Positions 5,526 through 62,814 of a DNA stretch of 64,000 nt are shown here, in pieces (the stretch's first letter is position 1; every line of letters begins with the position of its first letter). The DNA is from Candidatus Latescibacterota bacterium. GTDB lineage: Bacteria; Latescibacterota; UBA2968; UBA8231. The DNA lies in assembly GCA_965242865.1 (NCBI GenBank), contig CBDETK010000013.1, positions 832,001-896,000 of the forward strand, written 5' to 3'. The notes below the pieces were generated by a model. That model did not search any database, was not told where the DNA came from, and saw nothing but the letters and a program-made list of their open reading frames with translations. The position numbers and the translations under genes were made by a program.

Positions 5526-5647
5526 AGGTCCTCCTTTGGTAATGGGGGCCGAACTTTATTGATAGAACACCGCAGAGACCGCCAAGTTCCGCTCTTGCGG
5601 ATCCTGTGTTTAGGCTTTTATTTAACGACAGCAAATAACCTAAATCA

Positions 5648-5748
5648 GGGCCGGGCCTCCGTGCCTGCCCGTTAGAATTTCGTTGGGGCAGGCCCCCGTA
5701 CCTGCCCGTTAGAATTCCGTTGGGGCAGGCCCCCGTGCCTGCCCGTTA
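5648..5748 (+). repeat. Three tandem 37-bp REP-like units GGGGCAGGCCCCCGTGCCTGCCCGTTAGAATTTCGTT
   Basis: Units start at 5648, 5685 and 5722; each has a GGGCAGGC/GCCTGCCC hairpin; no unique spacers. Confidence 0.8.
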
Positions 5749-5905
5749 CAGCGGCAAATTTGGCACGATCGGTTGGCAAATGAACGAGACGATGGTTAAG
5801 CATTTCACATCAGGCAGGGGCTTTGCTGTGGGGCAAAACCCTGTTGGGTGCTTGGAATCATCGTCGGATTTAATGTGTCGTAAGTCCTTGAAAAACAACA
5901 ACTTA

Positions 5906-5922
5906 CCCCCCCCCCCCCCCCC
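5906..5922 (+). repeat. Poly-C homopolymer (C17), candidate slipped-strand switch
   Basis: 17 consecutive C; the paralogous locus has C15. Confidence 0.85.
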
Positions 5923-6277
5923 GAAAATTCTCCGCTAGCACCAAGCACTAAACCCTCTACAACTTCTCAGCATCGGCCGACGGATTGTGCGCGGCTGTTG
6001 GGCGTCGCGGCGATCTGGCCGCACGATCCCAAGCGCATGCTGCCGTGCGGCCTTTCTGCGGATCCACGTTTACGGCACCACCCCCGCAACCCGTCTGCCA
6101 AAAACCGAGGGCGGAATCTCCCCGCCCCGGACGCCGCCAGAACACCAGCAAAGGCCCACTCAAAGCAAGAGGCGCGTTCTGAGCGCTCCAAGTTAGCCCT
6201 AGGGCTAACTCCGCCTCTTTGGGTGCGTCATGCCTCTCTTCCAGTTTCCACACCATATCCATACAAAGGAGCAAAAA

Positions 6278-7969
6278 ATGCTTTCGTTGAAATCTCTCAA
6301 AACCCTGCTTGGCTTCGTCCTTTTGGGCGTCGTCGCTGCTTGGATGGGCTGCTCGGACTCCGCGCCGGTGGCCTCTCGGCCAGCGGGCAAAGCCACCTGT
6401 TCCTTGTGCGAATTCTTGGGCGACGACGCCTACACTGCTACCGACGGACTGGCCGCCCCCGAAAGCCCCGATAGCACCCAAACCGACGCCGACGCTGACA
6501 GTACACAGGCCGAGACCGACGCTGACGCCGATAGCACCCAAGCGGCCACCGTGGAGTTCGCCGACGCCAATCTGGAGCAGGCGGTGCGGGAGGCGTTGGA
6601 CCGCCCGTCAGGGCCGCTGACCCCGGCGGACTTGGCCGCCCTGACCGAACTCGACGCGAGCTATAAAAACATTGAGAGCGTGGCCGGCCTCGAACACGCG
6701 ACAGCACTGACAACGCTGTATCTACGGGGCAACGCGATTACCGACGTGAGCCCGTTGGCCAGTCTGACCAATCTGCACACGCTGTCGCTGTGGGGGAACA
6801 AGGTTGCGGACGTGAGTCCGCTGGCCAGCCTGATCAGCTTGCGCAAACTGGATATGTGGGGCAACGCGATTACCGACGTGCAGCCGTTAGCCGGCCTAAC
6901 GAACCTACAATTTCTCCAGCTAGGAGACAATGAGATTGAGGATGTCAGTCCGTTGGCGAGCCTGACGAACCTGCAATGGCTGGGCGTGATGGAAAACGCC
7001 CTCAGCCAGCACGCGGCCAACCAACAACTCGCCGCCGCAATCGCAAGCGGCCTCCGCGTCCAATCGTATATAGAAAAATACCGCCGCGTCGAAACGGTCC
7101 AAGTATCTAGAACGGAACCGGAGGAACAGACGGAACCCGCCCTATACTGGACGGACGGGGAGACGGATAAAATTCAGCGTGCTAACTTGGATGGCAAACA
7201 GGTCAAAGACCTCATCGACGACGCGATGGTATTGAATACGCCAGCGGGCATCGCGCTGGATTTGGTGAGCGGAAGGATATACTGGGCGGACCTTAACGCG
7301 GATAAAATTCAGCGTGCCAGCTTGGATGGCAAACAGGTCGAAGACCTCACCCCCCGCATCAACAGCTTCCTCCCCGACGGCGAGGAATTGCTTAATCCAT
7401 GGGACATCGAACTGGATTTGGCGCGCGGAAAGATGTACTGGACGGACTGGGGGCATAATAAGATTCAGCGTGCCAACTTGGATGGCTCACAGGTCGAAGA
7501 CCTCGTCACCAGCTTGGATGATCCATACCACATCGAACTGGATTTGGCGGGCGGAAAGATGTACTGGACAGACGGGGGCACGGATAAAATTCAGCGTGCC
7601 AATCTGTATGGCCCTCTCGAGACCGAAGATCTCGTCACCAGCACCGACGACGGATTGGATGATCCATCGGGCATTGCGCTGGATTTGGCGGGCGGAAAGA
7701 TGTACTGGACGGACTTTGGCACGGATAAAATTCAGCGTGCCGATCTGGACAGAGAGCCCGGAGATCCCGTCGAAGATCTCGTCACCAGCGGATTGCAGTT
7801 GCCAACGGACATCGCGCTGGATTTGGTGAACAGAAAGATGTACTGGACGGACTATGGCACGGATAAAATTCAGCGTGCCGATCTGGACAGAGAGCCCGGA
7901 GATCCCGTCGAAGATCTCGTCACCGACGGATTGATGCAGCCAATAGGCATCGCGCTGGGTACTCGGTAG
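6278..7969 (+). CDS. Lipoprotein with internalin-type leucine-rich repeats and a six-bladed YWTD (LDL-receptor class B-like) beta-propeller
   Basis: AAGGAG RBS, lipobox-like WMG-C, acidic STQxDADAD repeats, FADANLEQAVREAL cap, 22-aa LxxLxLxGNxITDVSPLASL repeats, six YWTD/YWAD blades. Confidence 0.9.
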   Translation: MLSLKSLKTLLGFVLLGVVAAWMGCSDSAPVASRPAGKATCSLCEFLGDDAYTATDGLAAPESPDSTQTDADADSTQAETDADADSTQAATVEFADANLEQAVREALDRPSGPLTPADLAALTELDASYKNIESVAGLEHATALTTLYLRGNAITDVSPLASLTNLHTLSLWGNKVADVSPLASLISLRKLDMWGNAITDVQPLAGLTNLQFLQLGDNEIEDVSPLASLTNLQWLGVMENALSQHAANQQLAAAIASGLRVQSYIEKYRRVETVQVSRTEPEEQTEPALYWTDGETDKIQRANLDGKQVKDLIDDAMVLNTPAGIALDLVSGRIYWADLNADKIQRASLDGKQVEDLTPRINSFLPDGEELLNPWDIELDLARGKMYWTDWGHNKIQRANLDGSQVEDLVTSLDDPYHIELDLAGGKMYWTDGGTDKIQRANLYGPLETEDLVTSTDDGLDDPSGIALDLAGGKMYWTDFGTDKIQRADLDREPGDPVEDLVTSGLQLPTDIALDLVNRKMYWTDYGTDKIQRADLDREPGDPVEDLVTDGLMQPIGIALGTR

Positions 7970-8045
7970 TCATGGAGGTTCACCTGCCCGGCTGGCATGG
8001 CGTTGAGGCGACGCGGCAGAACGGCTAAGGAGCCGAGCGGGAAGG
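7948..8045 (+). repeat. Shared 3' tail of the LRR-YWTD cassette (copy 2 at 61838-61924)
   Basis: CATCGCGCTGGGT...CATGGAGGTTCACCTGCCCGGCTGGCATGGC...GCCGAGCGGGAAGG at both loci. Confidence 0.85.
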
Positions 8046-8088
8046 TGATGGCACAACCAGCCCGATAGTGCTGTATGGCTGGGGTCGA

Positions 8089-58322: not shown

Positions 58323-58348
58323 GTTTTTAAGTGGAGGAGTTCGTGCGC

Positions 58349-59245
58349 GTGAAAATTGGAATCAGCATCCTCTGCCTAGTCGTACTCGCCACTGCGAGTA
58401 GCGGATTTGTCAATATCCATGTTTTTAGCCCCGGCGTTCGGTCTCTAGGGCTAGGCAACAGCTTTGTGGCGGTGGCGGACACTCCAGAAGCGGTGTTTGC
58501 CAATCCGGCGGGGTTGGGGCAACTGCGGCGGCGGCAGGCGACCTTTGCGTACTGGAACATGAACGAGGATATGGGGCAGTATATGGCATCATTTGGCATG
58601 CCACTAAATGCAAAGTTGGGGTTAGGGTTGGGCTATGAGCGGATTGCCTCGTCGCAGATGAACGAGAACGGGGCGTTTGCGTCGCTGTCGTATCAGGCCG
58701 TAAGGCGGCTGTACGTAGGGGTCTCGGCCAAGTACCTGTTTTCGATCATTAGCCCAAAGATCTTTGAGGGGGACCTACCAACGGCATCGTGGGTTGATGT
58801 GGGCTTGTTGTGGCAAAGCCCGTTTCCCGGGGCGCAGATGGGCTTGTTCTTAAAAAACGTGTATCAGGCCAGCGGGAAAAAGGATGCCGGGCAGAAAGAG
58901 AGAGAGGTGCATCTAGGGGCTGGATATCGGGTGGGGACGCGGGCGTTGCTGTCCGTGCAGTATGCACAATACCATGGGACTCCTTCTCAGCGTCGGTGGA
59001 TGATAGGCGGGGAGTATTACTTGCTAGAGGGGTTGGTTCTTAGGGCGGGGAGGGAGCATGAGTTCAACCGCTATGAGTCCGACCTCAACGGCCTCGACGG
59101 CAGAGTGTGGTTGAGCGTGGGCGTGGGGCTTCGATTGGAGTATCGGGCGGTTGGGCTGTTGTTGGACTATGCCCATCGCGGCGGTGCGGGGGGATGGTGG
59201 TGGGAATTATCGCCGCACCGATTTTCCCTTGCCTGTGAGTTCTAA
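58349..59245 (+). CDS. PorV/PorQ-like outer-membrane beta-barrel, tandem paralog
   Basis: GVRSLGLGNSFVAVADTPEAVFANPAGL; LGLGLGYERI shared with the upstream gene; HRFSLACEF. Confidence 0.8.
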   Translation: MKIGISILCLVVLATASSGFVNIHVFSPGVRSLGLGNSFVAVADTPEAVFANPAGLGQLRRRQATFAYWNMNEDMGQYMASFGMPLNAKLGLGLGYERIASSQMNENGAFASLSYQAVRRLYVGVSAKYLFSIISPKIFEGDLPTASWVDVGLLWQSPFPGAQMGLFLKNVYQASGKKDAGQKEREVHLGAGYRVGTRALLSVQYAQYHGTPSQRRWMIGGEYYLLEGLVLRAGREHEFNRYESDLNGLDGRVWLSVGVGLRLEYRAVGLLLDYAHRGGAGGWWWELSPHRFSLACEF

Positions 59246-59397
59246 GAAGCGGTCTGCTCCGCAAACCCTGCTTTGGGCTGCATGAACGACCGTCCAGTGG
59301 TCTTAACATCGCCCATTTTTGTAGGGCGAGATGTCCTTGAGAGTAGCGGCGTTTCGTCCCTTGCGTCCAAACGATCGTTGCCGTAGCAGTAAGCAGG

Positions 59398-59821
59398 TTG
59401 CGGCTTCTGCGTTTAGGCTCTTAATTATGGCCCGACGGCAAATAACCTAAATCAGGGGCAGGCCCCCGTGCCTGTCCGTTAGAATTTCGTTGGGGCAGGC
59501 CCCCGTGCCTGCCCGTTACAGCGGCAAATTTGGCACGATCGGTTGACGTAATGAACGAGACGATGGTTAAGCATTTCACATCAGACCGGGGCCTTGCTGT
59601 GGGGCAAAACCCTGTTGGGTGCTTGGATTCATCGTCAAATTTAATGTGTCGTAAGTCCTTGAAAAACAACGACTTACCCCCCCCCCCCCCCGAAAATTCT
59701 CCGCTAGCACCAAGCACTAAACGCTCTACTTCTCAGCATAGGCCGCCGGATCGTGCGCGGCTGTTGGGCGTCGCGCCGGTCTGGCCGCGCGGCCCCAAAC
59801 TGCACACGGCCGGTCGGCCTT
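59398..59821 (+). repeat. Duplicated leader, copy 2 (two 37-bp REP-like units at 59455 and 59492; poly-C15 at 59677-59691)
   Basis: Direct comparison with 5596-6055. Confidence 0.9.
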
Positions 59822-60071
59822 CGTCTGTACGCCGTGTACGTCGGCTGGGGCCGATCCAAAGTACCGCCCTAGGGCGAGCCCGGCCGCGCCATTCCCATTC
59901 TTCCTCACGATACGACCCACCACTCGCCTTCCAACGATCGCGGACATCCTGTCCTCGTCGAAGGCGAGACGCCCTCCAGCCCGGATTCATCGAGAACAGC
60001 AGAAAAGGCGTCCGCAAAGTAGGGGTCGTGTACTCAGCTCTTCTTCTAACCGCCATACAAAGGAGCAAAAA

Positions 60072-61859
60072 ATGTCCTTTTTGAAATCGACAAAAACCCT
60101 GCTTGGGTTCGTCCTTTTGGGCATCGTCGGCACTTGGATGGGCTGCTCAGACTCCGCGCCGGTCGCCTCTCGGCCAGCGGGCAAAGCCACCTGTTCCTTA
60201 TGCGAATTCTTGGGCGACGACACCTACACCGCTACCGACGGGCTGCCTGCTACCGAAAGCCCCGACACCACCCAGACCGACGCCGACGCTGACAGTACAC
60301 AGGCCGACGCCGACGCTGACAGCACCCAATCGGCCACCGTGGAGTTCGCCGACGCCAATCTGGAGCAGGCGGTGCGGGAGGCGTTGGACCGCCCGACAGG
60401 GCCGCTGACCCCGGCAGACTTGGCGTCTCTGACCGAACTCGACGCGAGCTACAAAAACATTCAGAGCGTGGCCGGCCTCGAACACGCGACGGCGCTGACA
60501 ACACTGTATCTGCGGGGCAACGCGATTACCGACGTGAGCCCGTTGGCCAGTCTGACCAATCTGCACACGCTGTCGCTGTGGGGGAACAAGGTGGCGGACG
60601 TCAGTCCGCTGGCCAGCCTGATCAGCTTGCGCAAGCTGGATATGTGGGGCAACGCGATTACCGACGTCAGTCCATTAGCCCGCCTAACGAACCTGCAATT
60701 TCTCAATCTAGGTGACAACGCGATTACGGACGTGAGTCCCTTGGCCAGCCTGACGAACCTGCAATGGCTGGGCGTGATGGAAAACGCCCTTAGCCAGCAC
60801 GCGGCCAACCAACAACTCGCCGCCGCGATAACAAGCGGCCTCCGCGTCGAAGCGGTACTAGAAAAATACCCCCGCGTCGAAACCGTCCAAGTCTATCCAG
60901 AAGAACCGGAACCGACGGTTTTCATACCCGACCCGACCGCCATATACTGGACGGACGCTGACACTAGAACAGGTATAGGTGAAACAACAAGAGAGTCAAA
61001 GATTTGGCGTTCCGACTTGAATGGCGAAAACTCCCAATCCTTCGTCCCCCCCCTAGTATATACAACTACCTCTGTCGATCCCTTTGGAGTAGTGGTACAA
61101 CCCGAACCTTTAGGAAGTCAGCCAGCGTTCACCGCGGTGGATGTGATTAACAGAAAGATATACTGGACGGACGGAGTCCTATGGGGTACGGTTCGGCGTT
61201 CCGACTTGGATGGCTCAAACACGCAAACCATCCTCTCGAGCATAGGTTCGCCAACGGGCATCGCGGTGGATGTGGTGAACAGAAAGATATACTGGACGAG
61301 CGGGTATCGCGCTGCCTCCGCTCCAAGCCCGGCAATCCCGGCTCATATTGGGGTTGCCGACTTGGATGGCAGAAACCCCCGACGCCTCTTCGAAACGGGG
61401 TTGGAGGGCCCACAGAGCATCGCGCTGGATGTGGCGAATAGAAAGATGTACTGGGCGAACTGGAACGCCCATAAGATTGAGTATTCCGACTTGAATGGCA
61501 GACAACGCCAAACATTCCTTGCGAGCGCTATGCCTGGCGATCCGGCCGATTATGTATCGGGCCTCGCGCTGGATGTGGTGAACAAAAAGATATACTGGGT
61601 GACTTGGCCGCGCCCTTCGGGCCCGGGTAAAATTATGTGGGCCGACTTAGATGGGAATGGCTCAGACGCCCAAGACTGCATCACCACGGAGTTGAATCAG
61701 CCATGGGGCATCGCGGTGGATTCGGTGGGCGGAAAGTTATACTGGGTGGACCGGGTCGATCAGAAGGTTGGGTACGCCAACTTGAATTGCACAGACCGCC
61801 AAGACATCATCACCACGGGGTTGAGGTATCCACTGAACATCGCGCTGGGTGTTTGGTAG
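60072..61859 (+). CDS. Lipoprotein with internalin-type LRRs and a six-bladed YWTD propeller (paralog of 6278-7969)
   Basis: Same RBS, lipobox, CxxC, acidic repeats and LRRs; six YW(T/A/V)x blades. Confidence 0.9.
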   Translation: MSFLKSTKTLLGFVLLGIVGTWMGCSDSAPVASRPAGKATCSLCEFLGDDTYTATDGLPATESPDTTQTDADADSTQADADADSTQSATVEFADANLEQAVREALDRPTGPLTPADLASLTELDASYKNIQSVAGLEHATALTTLYLRGNAITDVSPLASLTNLHTLSLWGNKVADVSPLASLISLRKLDMWGNAITDVSPLARLTNLQFLNLGDNAITDVSPLASLTNLQWLGVMENALSQHAANQQLAAAITSGLRVEAVLEKYPRVETVQVYPEEPEPTVFIPDPTAIYWTDADTRTGIGETTRESKIWRSDLNGENSQSFVPPLVYTTTSVDPFGVVVQPEPLGSQPAFTAVDVINRKIYWTDGVLWGTVRRSDLDGSNTQTILSSIGSPTGIAVDVVNRKIYWTSGYRAASAPSPAIPAHIGVADLDGRNPRRLFETGLEGPQSIALDVANRKMYWANWNAHKIEYSDLNGRQRQTFLASAMPGDPADYVSGLALDVVNKKIYWVTWPRPSGPGKIMWADLDGNGSDAQDCITTELNQPWGIAVDSVGGKLYWVDRVDQKVGYANLNCTDRQDIITTGLRYPLNIALGVW

Positions 61860-62008
61860 GCATGGAGGTTCACCTGCCCGGCTGGCATGGCCTTGAGATG
61901 CTGGGCTAAGGCCGAGCGGGAAGGACAGCGACCGCCTCTACGGCGTGTTCAACACACCCCAAGGTAGGGTTTGCGGAGCAGACCGCTTCTAAGAAAACGA
62001 TACCGGCA

Positions 62009-62066
62009 GGATTCCCGCTTTCGCGGGAAAGACGGAGGCCGTCCCCGAAGCGGGACGGCCTTTTCT
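62009..62066. terminator. REP-like hairpin (GATTCCCGCTTTCGCGGGAA) followed by an intrinsic terminator
   Basis: AGGCCGTCCC-CGAAGC-GGGACGGCCT followed by TTT. Confidence 0.65.
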
Positions 62067-62070
62067 CTTG

Positions 62071-62814
62071 CTATTCTACGATGTCTTCATCCACCTCGGC
62101 CACCAAAGTCCCGGGATCTTGGCCGCGGCAGATGTGCAAGCTGGTTCCCTGGTCCGAAAAGTCGAAAAAGTGCATGGGCATCTTGTGATCGCGCGCCAGC
62201 AGGACCGAGGATTGGTCGGCGATGGTGAGGTTTTCTTGGATGATTGTGTTGTAGTGCATCCGCCGGTACAGCCTCGCGTGGGGATCGGCGTGAGGATCGG
62301 CGGTAAAGATGCCGCTGACCCGGTTCTTCGCAAAAAGCAGGGCTTGAGACCGGGTCTCAATCGCGCGCTGGGCCGCCGTGTAGTCCGTGGTGACGTACGG
62401 ATTGCCAATGCCAGCGGCAAAGATGACGATGTAGTGCTTTTCTAGGTGGTGAATTGCGCGCAGCCGAATAAAAGGCTCGGCGACCGTGTTGATGGGAATG
62501 GCGCTCATTACCCGGACTTCGACAGCGGATTTAGAGGTGAGGACCCCGCGCAGCATCAGGCTGTTGATCACCGTCCCCATCATGCCAATGTTGTCGGCCT
62601 CGGCCCGTTCAATGCCCCACTGACTGGCGAGGGTGCCGCGGAATACATTGCCGCCGCCAATGACGATGGATATTTCAACCCCACAGGAGTGCAAGCTGAG
62701 GATTTCGTCGGCAATGTGCTCCAAGGAGTCCGGGTCAAAGCCCATGTCGTGCGGGCCGGAGACGGCCTCGCCGCTCAGCTTGAGCAAGGCGCGCTTGTAG
62801 CGCAAGGCGGTCAA
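62071..62814 (-). CDS. pyrH: UMP kinase
   Basis: YKRALLKLSGEA, IGGGNVFRG, ADNIGMMGTVIN, GIGNPYVTTD. Confidence 0.9.
   Translation of the reverse strand: MTALRYKRALLKLSGEAVSGPHDMGFDPDSLEHIADEILSLHSCGVEISIVIGGGNVFRGTLASQWGIERAEADNIGMMGTVINSLMLRGVLTSKSAVEVRVMSAIPINTVAEPFIRLRAIHHLEKHYIVIFAAGIGNPYVTTDYTAAQRAIETRSQALLFAKNRVSGIFTADPHADPHARLYRRMHYNTIIQENLTIADQSSVLLARDHKMPMHFFDFSDQGTSLHICRGQDPGTLVAEVDEDIVE

Follow-up and report, generated by a model that had tools for sequence, protein, structure and literature searches.

A 2744-bp segment of a Candidatus Latescibacterota genome is probably a transposase-less derivative of an IS5-family insertion sequence (IS), that is, a mobile insertion cassette (MIC), which carries one gene for a protein with leucine-rich repeats (LRR) and a YWTD propeller and which a DDE transposase acting in trans would have inserted, as a single unit, at the TAA that ends the upstream gene. 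The segment lies in a stretch of 64,000 nucleotides, the window, taken from contig CBDETK010000013.1 (positions 832,001 to 896,000 of the forward strand, assembly GCA_965242865.1). Genome-wide searches cover the genome to which it belongs (G000, 6.0 Mb), and comparisons with relatives cover 30 congeners.

Boundaries, ends and a candidate partner IS

The element is bounded by the 24-mer GAAGCGGTCTGCTCCGCAAACCCT, found at 59246-59269 on the plus strand and at 61966-61989 on the minus strand. These are its only two matches in the window, also when up to three mismatches are allowed, and the number expected by chance from 100 shuffles is 0.00. The inverted-repeat arms are perfect over 24 nt, continue to 32 nt with two mismatches, and reach 41 nt at 90% identity in a repeat search that counts the flanking TTCTAA. 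A TAA stands outside each arm (59243-59245 on the left, 61990-61992 on the right) with 2744 bp in between, and the left one is the stop codon of the open reading frame (ORF) 58331..59245. An earlier reading of the letters alone (the sequence-only reading) had described paired perfect repeats with an extension of about 32 bp and two mismatches, TAA flanks of which the left ends the upstream gene, and an interior holding only a leader, the LRR-YWTD gene and its tail; sequence and profile searches confirmed all of this. Indeed, the interior has one long ORF, the product of which matches the Pfam families LRR_4 (138.7 bits) and Ldl_recept_b (68.2 bits), followed by a tail of 130 nt. Three other interior ORFs had no Pfam match, and no transposase gene was found inside the element.

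The 24-mer occurs in the genome in 4 exact copies, in 14 at up to two mismatches and in 18 at up to four, and 15 of these 18 have a TNA flank; it is thus not an abundant solitary repetitive extragenic palindromic (REP) sequence. The 11-nt tip alone (at most one mismatch) gave 250 matches, 59 of them TNA-flanked, and solo ends are common. From these tip matches, 55 family members were chosen by their inner sequence, of which 51 are flanked by TNA (TTA 26, TAA 17, TCA 6, TGA 2) and 38 have a C at position -4, giving a target of roughly T-Y-C-TNA. Inward-facing pairs of ends 131-209 bp apart, with the same tips as the element, make up a family of miniature transposable elements with inverted repeats (MITEs) that run from the left tip through CTCTGGTGGTCGTCCCTTGCGTCCAAACGAT, the hairpin GGATTCCCGCTTTCGCGGGAA and a stretch beginning CTACGGCTTGTTCAACAC to the right tip. 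The first 132 bp and the last 92 bp of the element correspond to halves of such MITEs.

Among the IS5-family transposase genes of the genome are those of a 931-bp IS with the tips GAAGCTGTCTGAAAACT and GAAGCGGTCTGAAAACT, which share the pattern GAAGC(G/T)GTCTGAAAAC, and with TAA on both sides. Its two copies (C13 2853142-2854072 and 3345909-3346839) have 0 differences in 931 positions, and several fragments exist besides. ORF A matches the first half of the profile NF033580 (transpos_IS5_3) at 117.1 bits, above the cut-off of 110, and ORF B the second half at 84.4 bits; further matches of these ORFs are to DUF4096 (93 bits), DDE_Tnp_1 and DDE_Tnp_1_2, and a run of seven A (A7) lies where the two ORFs overlap. 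This IS is predicted to encode an IS5-type DDE transposase. The tip of the element equals that of the IS over 11 nt and then has six extra bases (CTCCGC) before the AAAC common to both. The search for an autonomous partner thus led to a candidate with ends that differ from those of the element by this 6-nt insert, and we infer that it is the mobiliser.

The ends had been assigned to the IS1031 group of the IS5 family. The family and the 3-bp TNA duplication held up; the group is uncertain, since the IS has a 3-nt TNA target but, in place of a single ORF, two ORFs and an A7 run, as in the IS427 group. The group descriptions give for IS427 two overlapping ORFs with a frameshift motif, a length of about 830-865 bp and a duplication of 2-4 bp (PMC3281130), and for IS1031 a 3-nt insertion-site duplication (PMC2516522) and a single transposase ORF (PMC2516522, PMC3196728). 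At 931 bp, the IS is longer than the IS427-group examples, and its 3-bp duplication falls within their range. Compared with these group descriptions only, it mixes the traits of both: two overlapping ORFs and a slippery A-run as in the IS427 group, a 3-nt duplication as in the IS1031 group. Its terminal repeats are short and start with GA.

Two observations were made alongside. At C13 1940169-1940282, the left arm of a cassette consists of the IS's own left end and the first bases of the transposase gene, joined to the leader, an arrangement that ties the IS directly to cassette-bearing derivatives. A second IS5-family IS of 926 bp, with tips GAAGCCTTTTTAAAAC and TNA flanks, shares ~65% identity with the one of 931 bp; the genome has three copies of it (C13 5598670-5599595, 5378780-5379705 and 4813284-4814209).

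Empty sites, movement as a unit and rival explanations

Full-length orthologues of the upstream gene were found in five congeners (G021, G006, G013, G011 and G022) at 70-77% identity. All five end in ...GA(A/G)TTC TAA, and the terminator hairpin known from window position 62036 comes immediately after, with no MITE. Compared with these empty sites, the window has three additions: the element of 2744 bp, the TAA to its right, and a 43-bp stretch (61993-62035) similar to the central part of the MITEs. Empty sites, which the sequence-only reading had suggested looking for, do exist in relatives, but excision would not restore them as it envisaged, because the 43 bp, absent from the relatives, would remain. 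In the simplest order of events, a MITE, now reduced to this relic, would have come first and the cassette unit would have followed at the adjoining TAA. Both window junctions are spanned by contigs in three runs, which come from two studies, one of these contigs representing a strain with 8 differences in 370 nt, and the contig of a fourth run bridges the right junction only. The runs holding this genome are sponge metagenomes. The joint 59376 to 62007 (side 22) was considered as an excision product and rejected, as any ordinary MITE of this family looks the same.

A second locus argues that the unit moved as a whole. At C13 1921095-1923536, the flank is followed by TAA, a 2442-bp unit, TAA, a 162-bp MITE and TAA. 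The window element and this copy agree in layout and in the two internal deletions of their left arms, each standing between its own pair of TAA; the deletions are read relative to C13 1175085, where a complete 131-bp MITE, TTA, a second end and then the cassette are found. Because these deletion junctions are common to both, the two would descend from one composite that is now at different loci. In the nearest relative (G046, with ~91% identical flanks), the 1921095 site holds an 85-bp MITE in the other orientation between two TAAs and no cassette, and in G019 it holds neither cassette nor MITE. G046, G019 and G009 all lack a third paired copy (1849832-1852364). A fourth (5563345-5566309) is flanked by TAA on both sides, so that other paired ends with TAA/TAA duplications do exist in the genome; in five relatives, the loci with its left flank did not contain the right one.

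The right arms point the same way. A profile search found them at 35 places, and after five weak partial matches were dropped, 11 of 11 arms bearing the 6-nt insert were on cassettes versus 2 of 19 plain arms. Since an insert 12-17 nt from the tip cannot pass by recombination within the arms, cassette and tip would have been copied together. The insert-bearing 20-mer (at most one mismatch) has 14 matches in this genome, whereas 0 of the 30 congeners have any; 27 of the 30 do have the plain, TNA-flanked tip. The leader has 31 matches here, and matches longer than ~200 nt elsewhere were found only in G046, G007 and G043, at 72-78%. Outside the genome, the closest relatives of the cargo protein reach 68-69% identity, and this over 260-280 residues at the N-terminus. 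The expansion of the cassette is specific to this lineage, because insert-bearing tips, leader and cargo are far more numerous here than in the congeners, and the unit appears to have moved as a whole at least twice within it. Together, the ends, MITEs, IS and empty sites support the original proposal of an IS5-family vehicle that is non-autonomous, duplicates 3 bp of the form TNA and has LRR-YWTD cargo.

Other origins of the same arrangement were weighed. The cassette might have spread when resident MITEs took it up through gene conversion or homologous recombination, in which case the repeats and TAA duplications would be those of an older MITE. This would fit the position of the core cassette within a MITE backbone (arms of 132 and 92 bp), the MITE remains beside the window element (the 43-bp relic) and beside the 1921095 copy (the 162-bp MITE), and the mosaic left arms. 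We nevertheless consider it improbable: at both sites the extra MITE adjoins the element instead of being replaced by it, the five empty sites at the window locus are without any MITE, and transfer of the insert, which sits on 11/11 of the cassette right arms bearing it while 17/19 plain right arms lie off cassettes, needs a crossover within the outermost 11 nt. It is far less probable still that a resident gene was framed by two independent insertions of solo ends or MITEs, the repeat pair being the coincidence of a hot target. The family does prefer T-Y-C-TNA targets and does insert beside its own ends, and solo ends are common. Yet none of the five empty sites has the gene, the leader or the arms, the two TAAs would have been separate targets 2.7 kb apart in DNA that was then not there, and the same composite with the same arm junctions is present at another locus.

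The sequence-only reading had also offered the ends as REP-type hairpins, with a REP-associated tyrosine transposase (RAYT/HUH, Y1) as the enzyme that mobilises the unit. A short hairpin can be drawn at each end, and the genome has one partial match to Y1_Tnp (30.5 bits, profile positions 58-121 of 121). A REP/RAYT system would show a stable imperfect palindrome, many copies and a linked Y1 transposase. As single strands, however, the ends are no more stably folded than shuffled sequence (z 0.11 and -1.42), only the 18 copies at up to four mismatches exist, the flanks are TNA, the 11-nt start is common with a DDE IS, and the ends form inverted pairs around MITEs. TNA-flanked ends, DDE-IS tips and inverted pairing are traits of cut-and-paste DDE elements, not of REPs. 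Fold scores, low copy number, flanks, tip and the partial Y1_Tnp match led us to rule this explanation out, and we give it next to no credence.

Several observations weigh against the preferred reading of an IS5-derived cassette inserted as a unit by a transposase in trans. More than one event took place at the window site, because the 43-bp relic is extra besides the element. Neither an empty-site joint nor other signs of current mobility were seen among the 15 listed of 43 joints in the run contigs, which are assembled and broken at repeats, so that rare excision could escape them. The 1849832 copy, the sixth cassette with both ends, is flanked by CTA on the left and TTA on the right plus a 19-bp direct repeat, without a clean 3-bp duplication. 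This repeat, ACAACCCTCGTGGTTGYCC (C13 1849790-1849831 and 1852365-1852390), is single in relatives; an IS that duplicates 3 bp does not produce such a repeat, and a second insertion route may exist. As to the partner, recognition of insert-bearing tips by the transposase of the 931-bp IS is an assumption. No IS with such tips was found in this genome or in the 30 congeners, the GTDB set (one genome per species) gave two isolated single matches in unrelated genomes, and metagenome contigs of JGI gave 0 matches. Conservation of the first 24 nt of the ends (pairwise identity 0.936) hardly exceeds that of the 36 nt behind them (0.914).

The other cassettes add to these points. A lenient search that required TNA found an inward right end in 10 of the 30, usually 129-132 nt after the stop codon, and an inward left end in 9; five have both and about half have neither. 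While the right arms are uniform, the left boundaries are mosaic, with several kinds of inward end, and at some of them outward-facing ends abut TNA-GGA-TTGCCGTAG. The other cassette copies are only 82-92% identical to the window element, and the IS copies are identical to each other; given this divergence of the cassettes, their spread is not recent and may be old.

If the IS5-derived cassette is nonetheless the right explanation, the transposase would bind the tip of 11 nt even though a 6-nt insert follows, and would cut at the tips, and integration would take place at T-Y-C-TNA targets, often directly beside an existing end of the same family. Through transposition, a handful of cassettes would have grown to about 30 in this lineage, many of which would later have lost one or both ends, and the poly-C tract of the leader would let each copy vary individually in expression.

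The cassettes, their cargo and the leader

The 2.5-kb core of leader and gene was found by BLAST at ~30 places. Thirty copies have the leader hairpin and a C-run, and in 24 of them the ORF measures 474-666 aa. One further copy within the window (copy 1, about 5595-8060) had been said to lack the ends of the element; it has no 24-mer, although ~45 nt of right-arm sequence without the terminal repeat remain. Copy 1 is absent from G046, which has 271 bp at that place. The features of the element and its surroundings are listed in Table 1.

Table 1. Element and adjoining features (positions in the window)
Feature	Position	Strand	Description
Upstream host gene	58331..59245	+	304 aa, without a Pfam family; its stop codon (TAA, 59243-59245) forms the left target-duplication copy
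Left terminal inverted repeat	59246..59277	+	IS5-type tip GAAGCGGTCTG, then 6-nt insert CTCCGC, then AAAC
Left arm, MITE-derived, 132 bp	59246..59377	+	Outer part of 131-bp MITE joined to inner segment CGTCCCTTGCGTCCAAACGATCG of a second end
Conserved cassette leader	59378..59840	+	Two REP-like 27-mers (59455-59518), hairpin with 7-bp stem (59651-59677), poly-C tract
Poly-C tract, 15 C	59677..59691	+	380 nt upstream of ATG
Nested small repeat, second unrelated family	59900..60040	+	Ends CTAAGTACGCGACAC / GTGTCGCGTACTTAG; in the leader of 5 cassettes
Cargo gene, 595 aa	60072..61859	+	LRR repeats and YWTD (LDL-receptor class B) propeller
Right arm, 92 bp	61898..61989	+	Homologous to right part of MITEs (CGGGAAGGAC...CTCTACGGCGTGTTCAACAC...); ends in terminal repeat 61966-61989
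Right target-duplication copy TAA	61990..61992	.	Directly outside the right terminal repeat
MITE-interior relic, 43 bp	61993..62035	+	GAAAACGATACCGGCAGGATTCCCGCTTTCGCGGGAAAGACGG; missing from relatives' empty sites
Terminator-like hairpin and T-run	62036..62069	+	Directly 3' of the upstream gene's stop codon in relatives

The cargo protein, with an N-terminal signal and Cys24, is likely a lipoprotein. It should be noted that the N-terminal ~295 residues (signal and LRR) are 81-90% identical among most cargo copies and that the C-terminal propeller half is far more divergent or replaced, a modular pattern that suggests diversification of the distal domain.

Across the 30 cassette copies, the uninterrupted C-runs count 5-20 residues, and four tracts are interrupted. 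A distance of 305-430 nt separates the tract from the ATG downstream in most copies, and highly conserved sequence borders it on both sides. The hairpin that precedes it folds better than shuffles (z -4.05). A promoter scan found no fitting sigma-70-type hexamer pair around the poly-C, the spacing from TTGAAA to GAAAAT being 20-32 nt in the 26 of 30 copies in which both motifs were found. Hypermutability of the tract is plausible, and the switching proposed by the sequence-only reading is hypothetical; the length differences are those among paralogues, and the assembled contigs cannot show length variants within a population. Related leaders with 12-17 C or G precede other genes in congeners, including a gene of the pyrroloquinoline quinone (PQQ)-dehydrogenase type and an LRR gene; the leader is therefore a genus-wide module and not an invention of the element.

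A 45-nt motif of hairpin and poly-C (GTAAGTC-loop-GACTTAC followed by the C-run; window 59643-59691) recurs in several congeners, with 21 matches in G004, 15 in G046, 14 in G043 and 13 in G007. It precedes unrelated genes there, for example that of a PQQ-type dehydrogenase, and has the look of a promoter or other regulatory module, common to the genus, in which the tract is hypermutable. The nested repeat belongs to a family of ~100-140 bp with ~56 BLAST matches genome-wide (for example at C13 1341965, 4339108 and 4666914), in which the ends CTAAGTACGCGACAC ... GTGTCGCGTACTTAG are inverted and the centre is a GC-rich palindrome, GGATCGAGGGC...GCCCTCGATCC; this family, too, probably consists of MITEs or REPs. 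Part of the upstream 304-aa gene (query positions 118-415) is repeated at C13 889419-889880 and 4628263-4628730, and the same partial stretch is present in most congeners, often in two or three copies per genome. An Rfam search of 59200-62100 gave nothing above threshold, with one sub-threshold ctRNA-like match at the terminator (E 0.43).

Known systems and biological meaning

By its features, the element appears to be a MIC, a kind of element already known. It has IS-type repeats, no inner transposase, a duplication of the parent type (TAA/TAA, as for the 931-bp IS) and an empty site. MIC231 of Bacillus cereus is reportedly mobilised by IS231A. Here, by comparison, the parent family is IS5 and not IS4/IS231, the tips contain a 6-nt insert unseen in any IS found, the copies number ~30, and mobilisation in trans is putative. 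As characterised in the cited passages, MICs hold one or more passenger genes between IS-related repeats, have no transposase, and are activated by the cognate transposase (PMC4337579, PMC3281130). On that description they resemble the element in the passenger between IS-type inverted repeats, the lack of a transposase, the target duplication of the parent family and the presence of a related IS in the genome.

The nearest biological parallel is provided by the MICs derived from TnXax1 in Xanthomonas, which carry genes of transcription activator-like effectors (TALE) and other type III effectors and the target duplications of which are taken as proof of true transposition (PMC4337579). In both cases, on this account, host-interaction genes are multiplied as cargo between transposon ends, with solo repeats, homogeneous right sides and variable left sides. 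Both repeats are kept by only part of the copies: 45% of the Xanthomonas TALE genes are reported to be associated with inverted repeats, and solo inverted repeats occur (PMC4337579), compared with 5-6 of the 30 cassettes here. The systems differ in that Xanthomonas, a plant pathogen, has Tn3-family ends and 5-bp duplications, whereas the bacterium from sponge metagenomes has IS5-family ends and 3-bp TNA duplications, and in that the cargo here, unlike that of the TnXax1 MICs, comes with a conserved poly-C leader.

Homopolymer tracts are the basis of contingency loci, the phase-variable surface genes of Neisseria, Haemophilus and Campylobacter. The cassettes are like these in having a long homopolymer upstream of a surface gene, with a length that differs among copies (5-20 C). 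Unlike in contingency loci, the tract lies 305-430 nt from the ATG in most copies and not between hexamers of workable spacing. A wider proposal, which we regard as speculative and rather unlikely, is that an IS5-derived vehicle seeds loci with LRR-propeller genes, each with its own hypermutable poly-C, as a transposon-borne contingency-gene system in which the insert-bearing tip co-evolved with the cargo. If this were true, about 30 host-facing proteins with variable C-terminal propellers would be both multiplied and individually switched.

Sponge symbionts are regarded as having two hallmarks, expanded sets of eukaryote-like repeat proteins and abundant transposable elements. In a literature search of titles and abstract openings, papers on each theme were found, nothing linked repeat-protein expansion mechanistically with transposable elements in these symbionts, and no repeat-protein genes of sponge-associated bacteria appeared as MIC cargo. 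The variant ends and the IS transposase form a pair with which to ask how much tip variation an IS5-type transposase tolerates, and the cassettes may serve as a set of dated insertions for strain typing. A transposase-less, IS5-derived vehicle would account for at least part of the rise of this surface gene to ~30 copies and would thereby provide a concrete mechanism for the expansion of a gene family in a symbiont.

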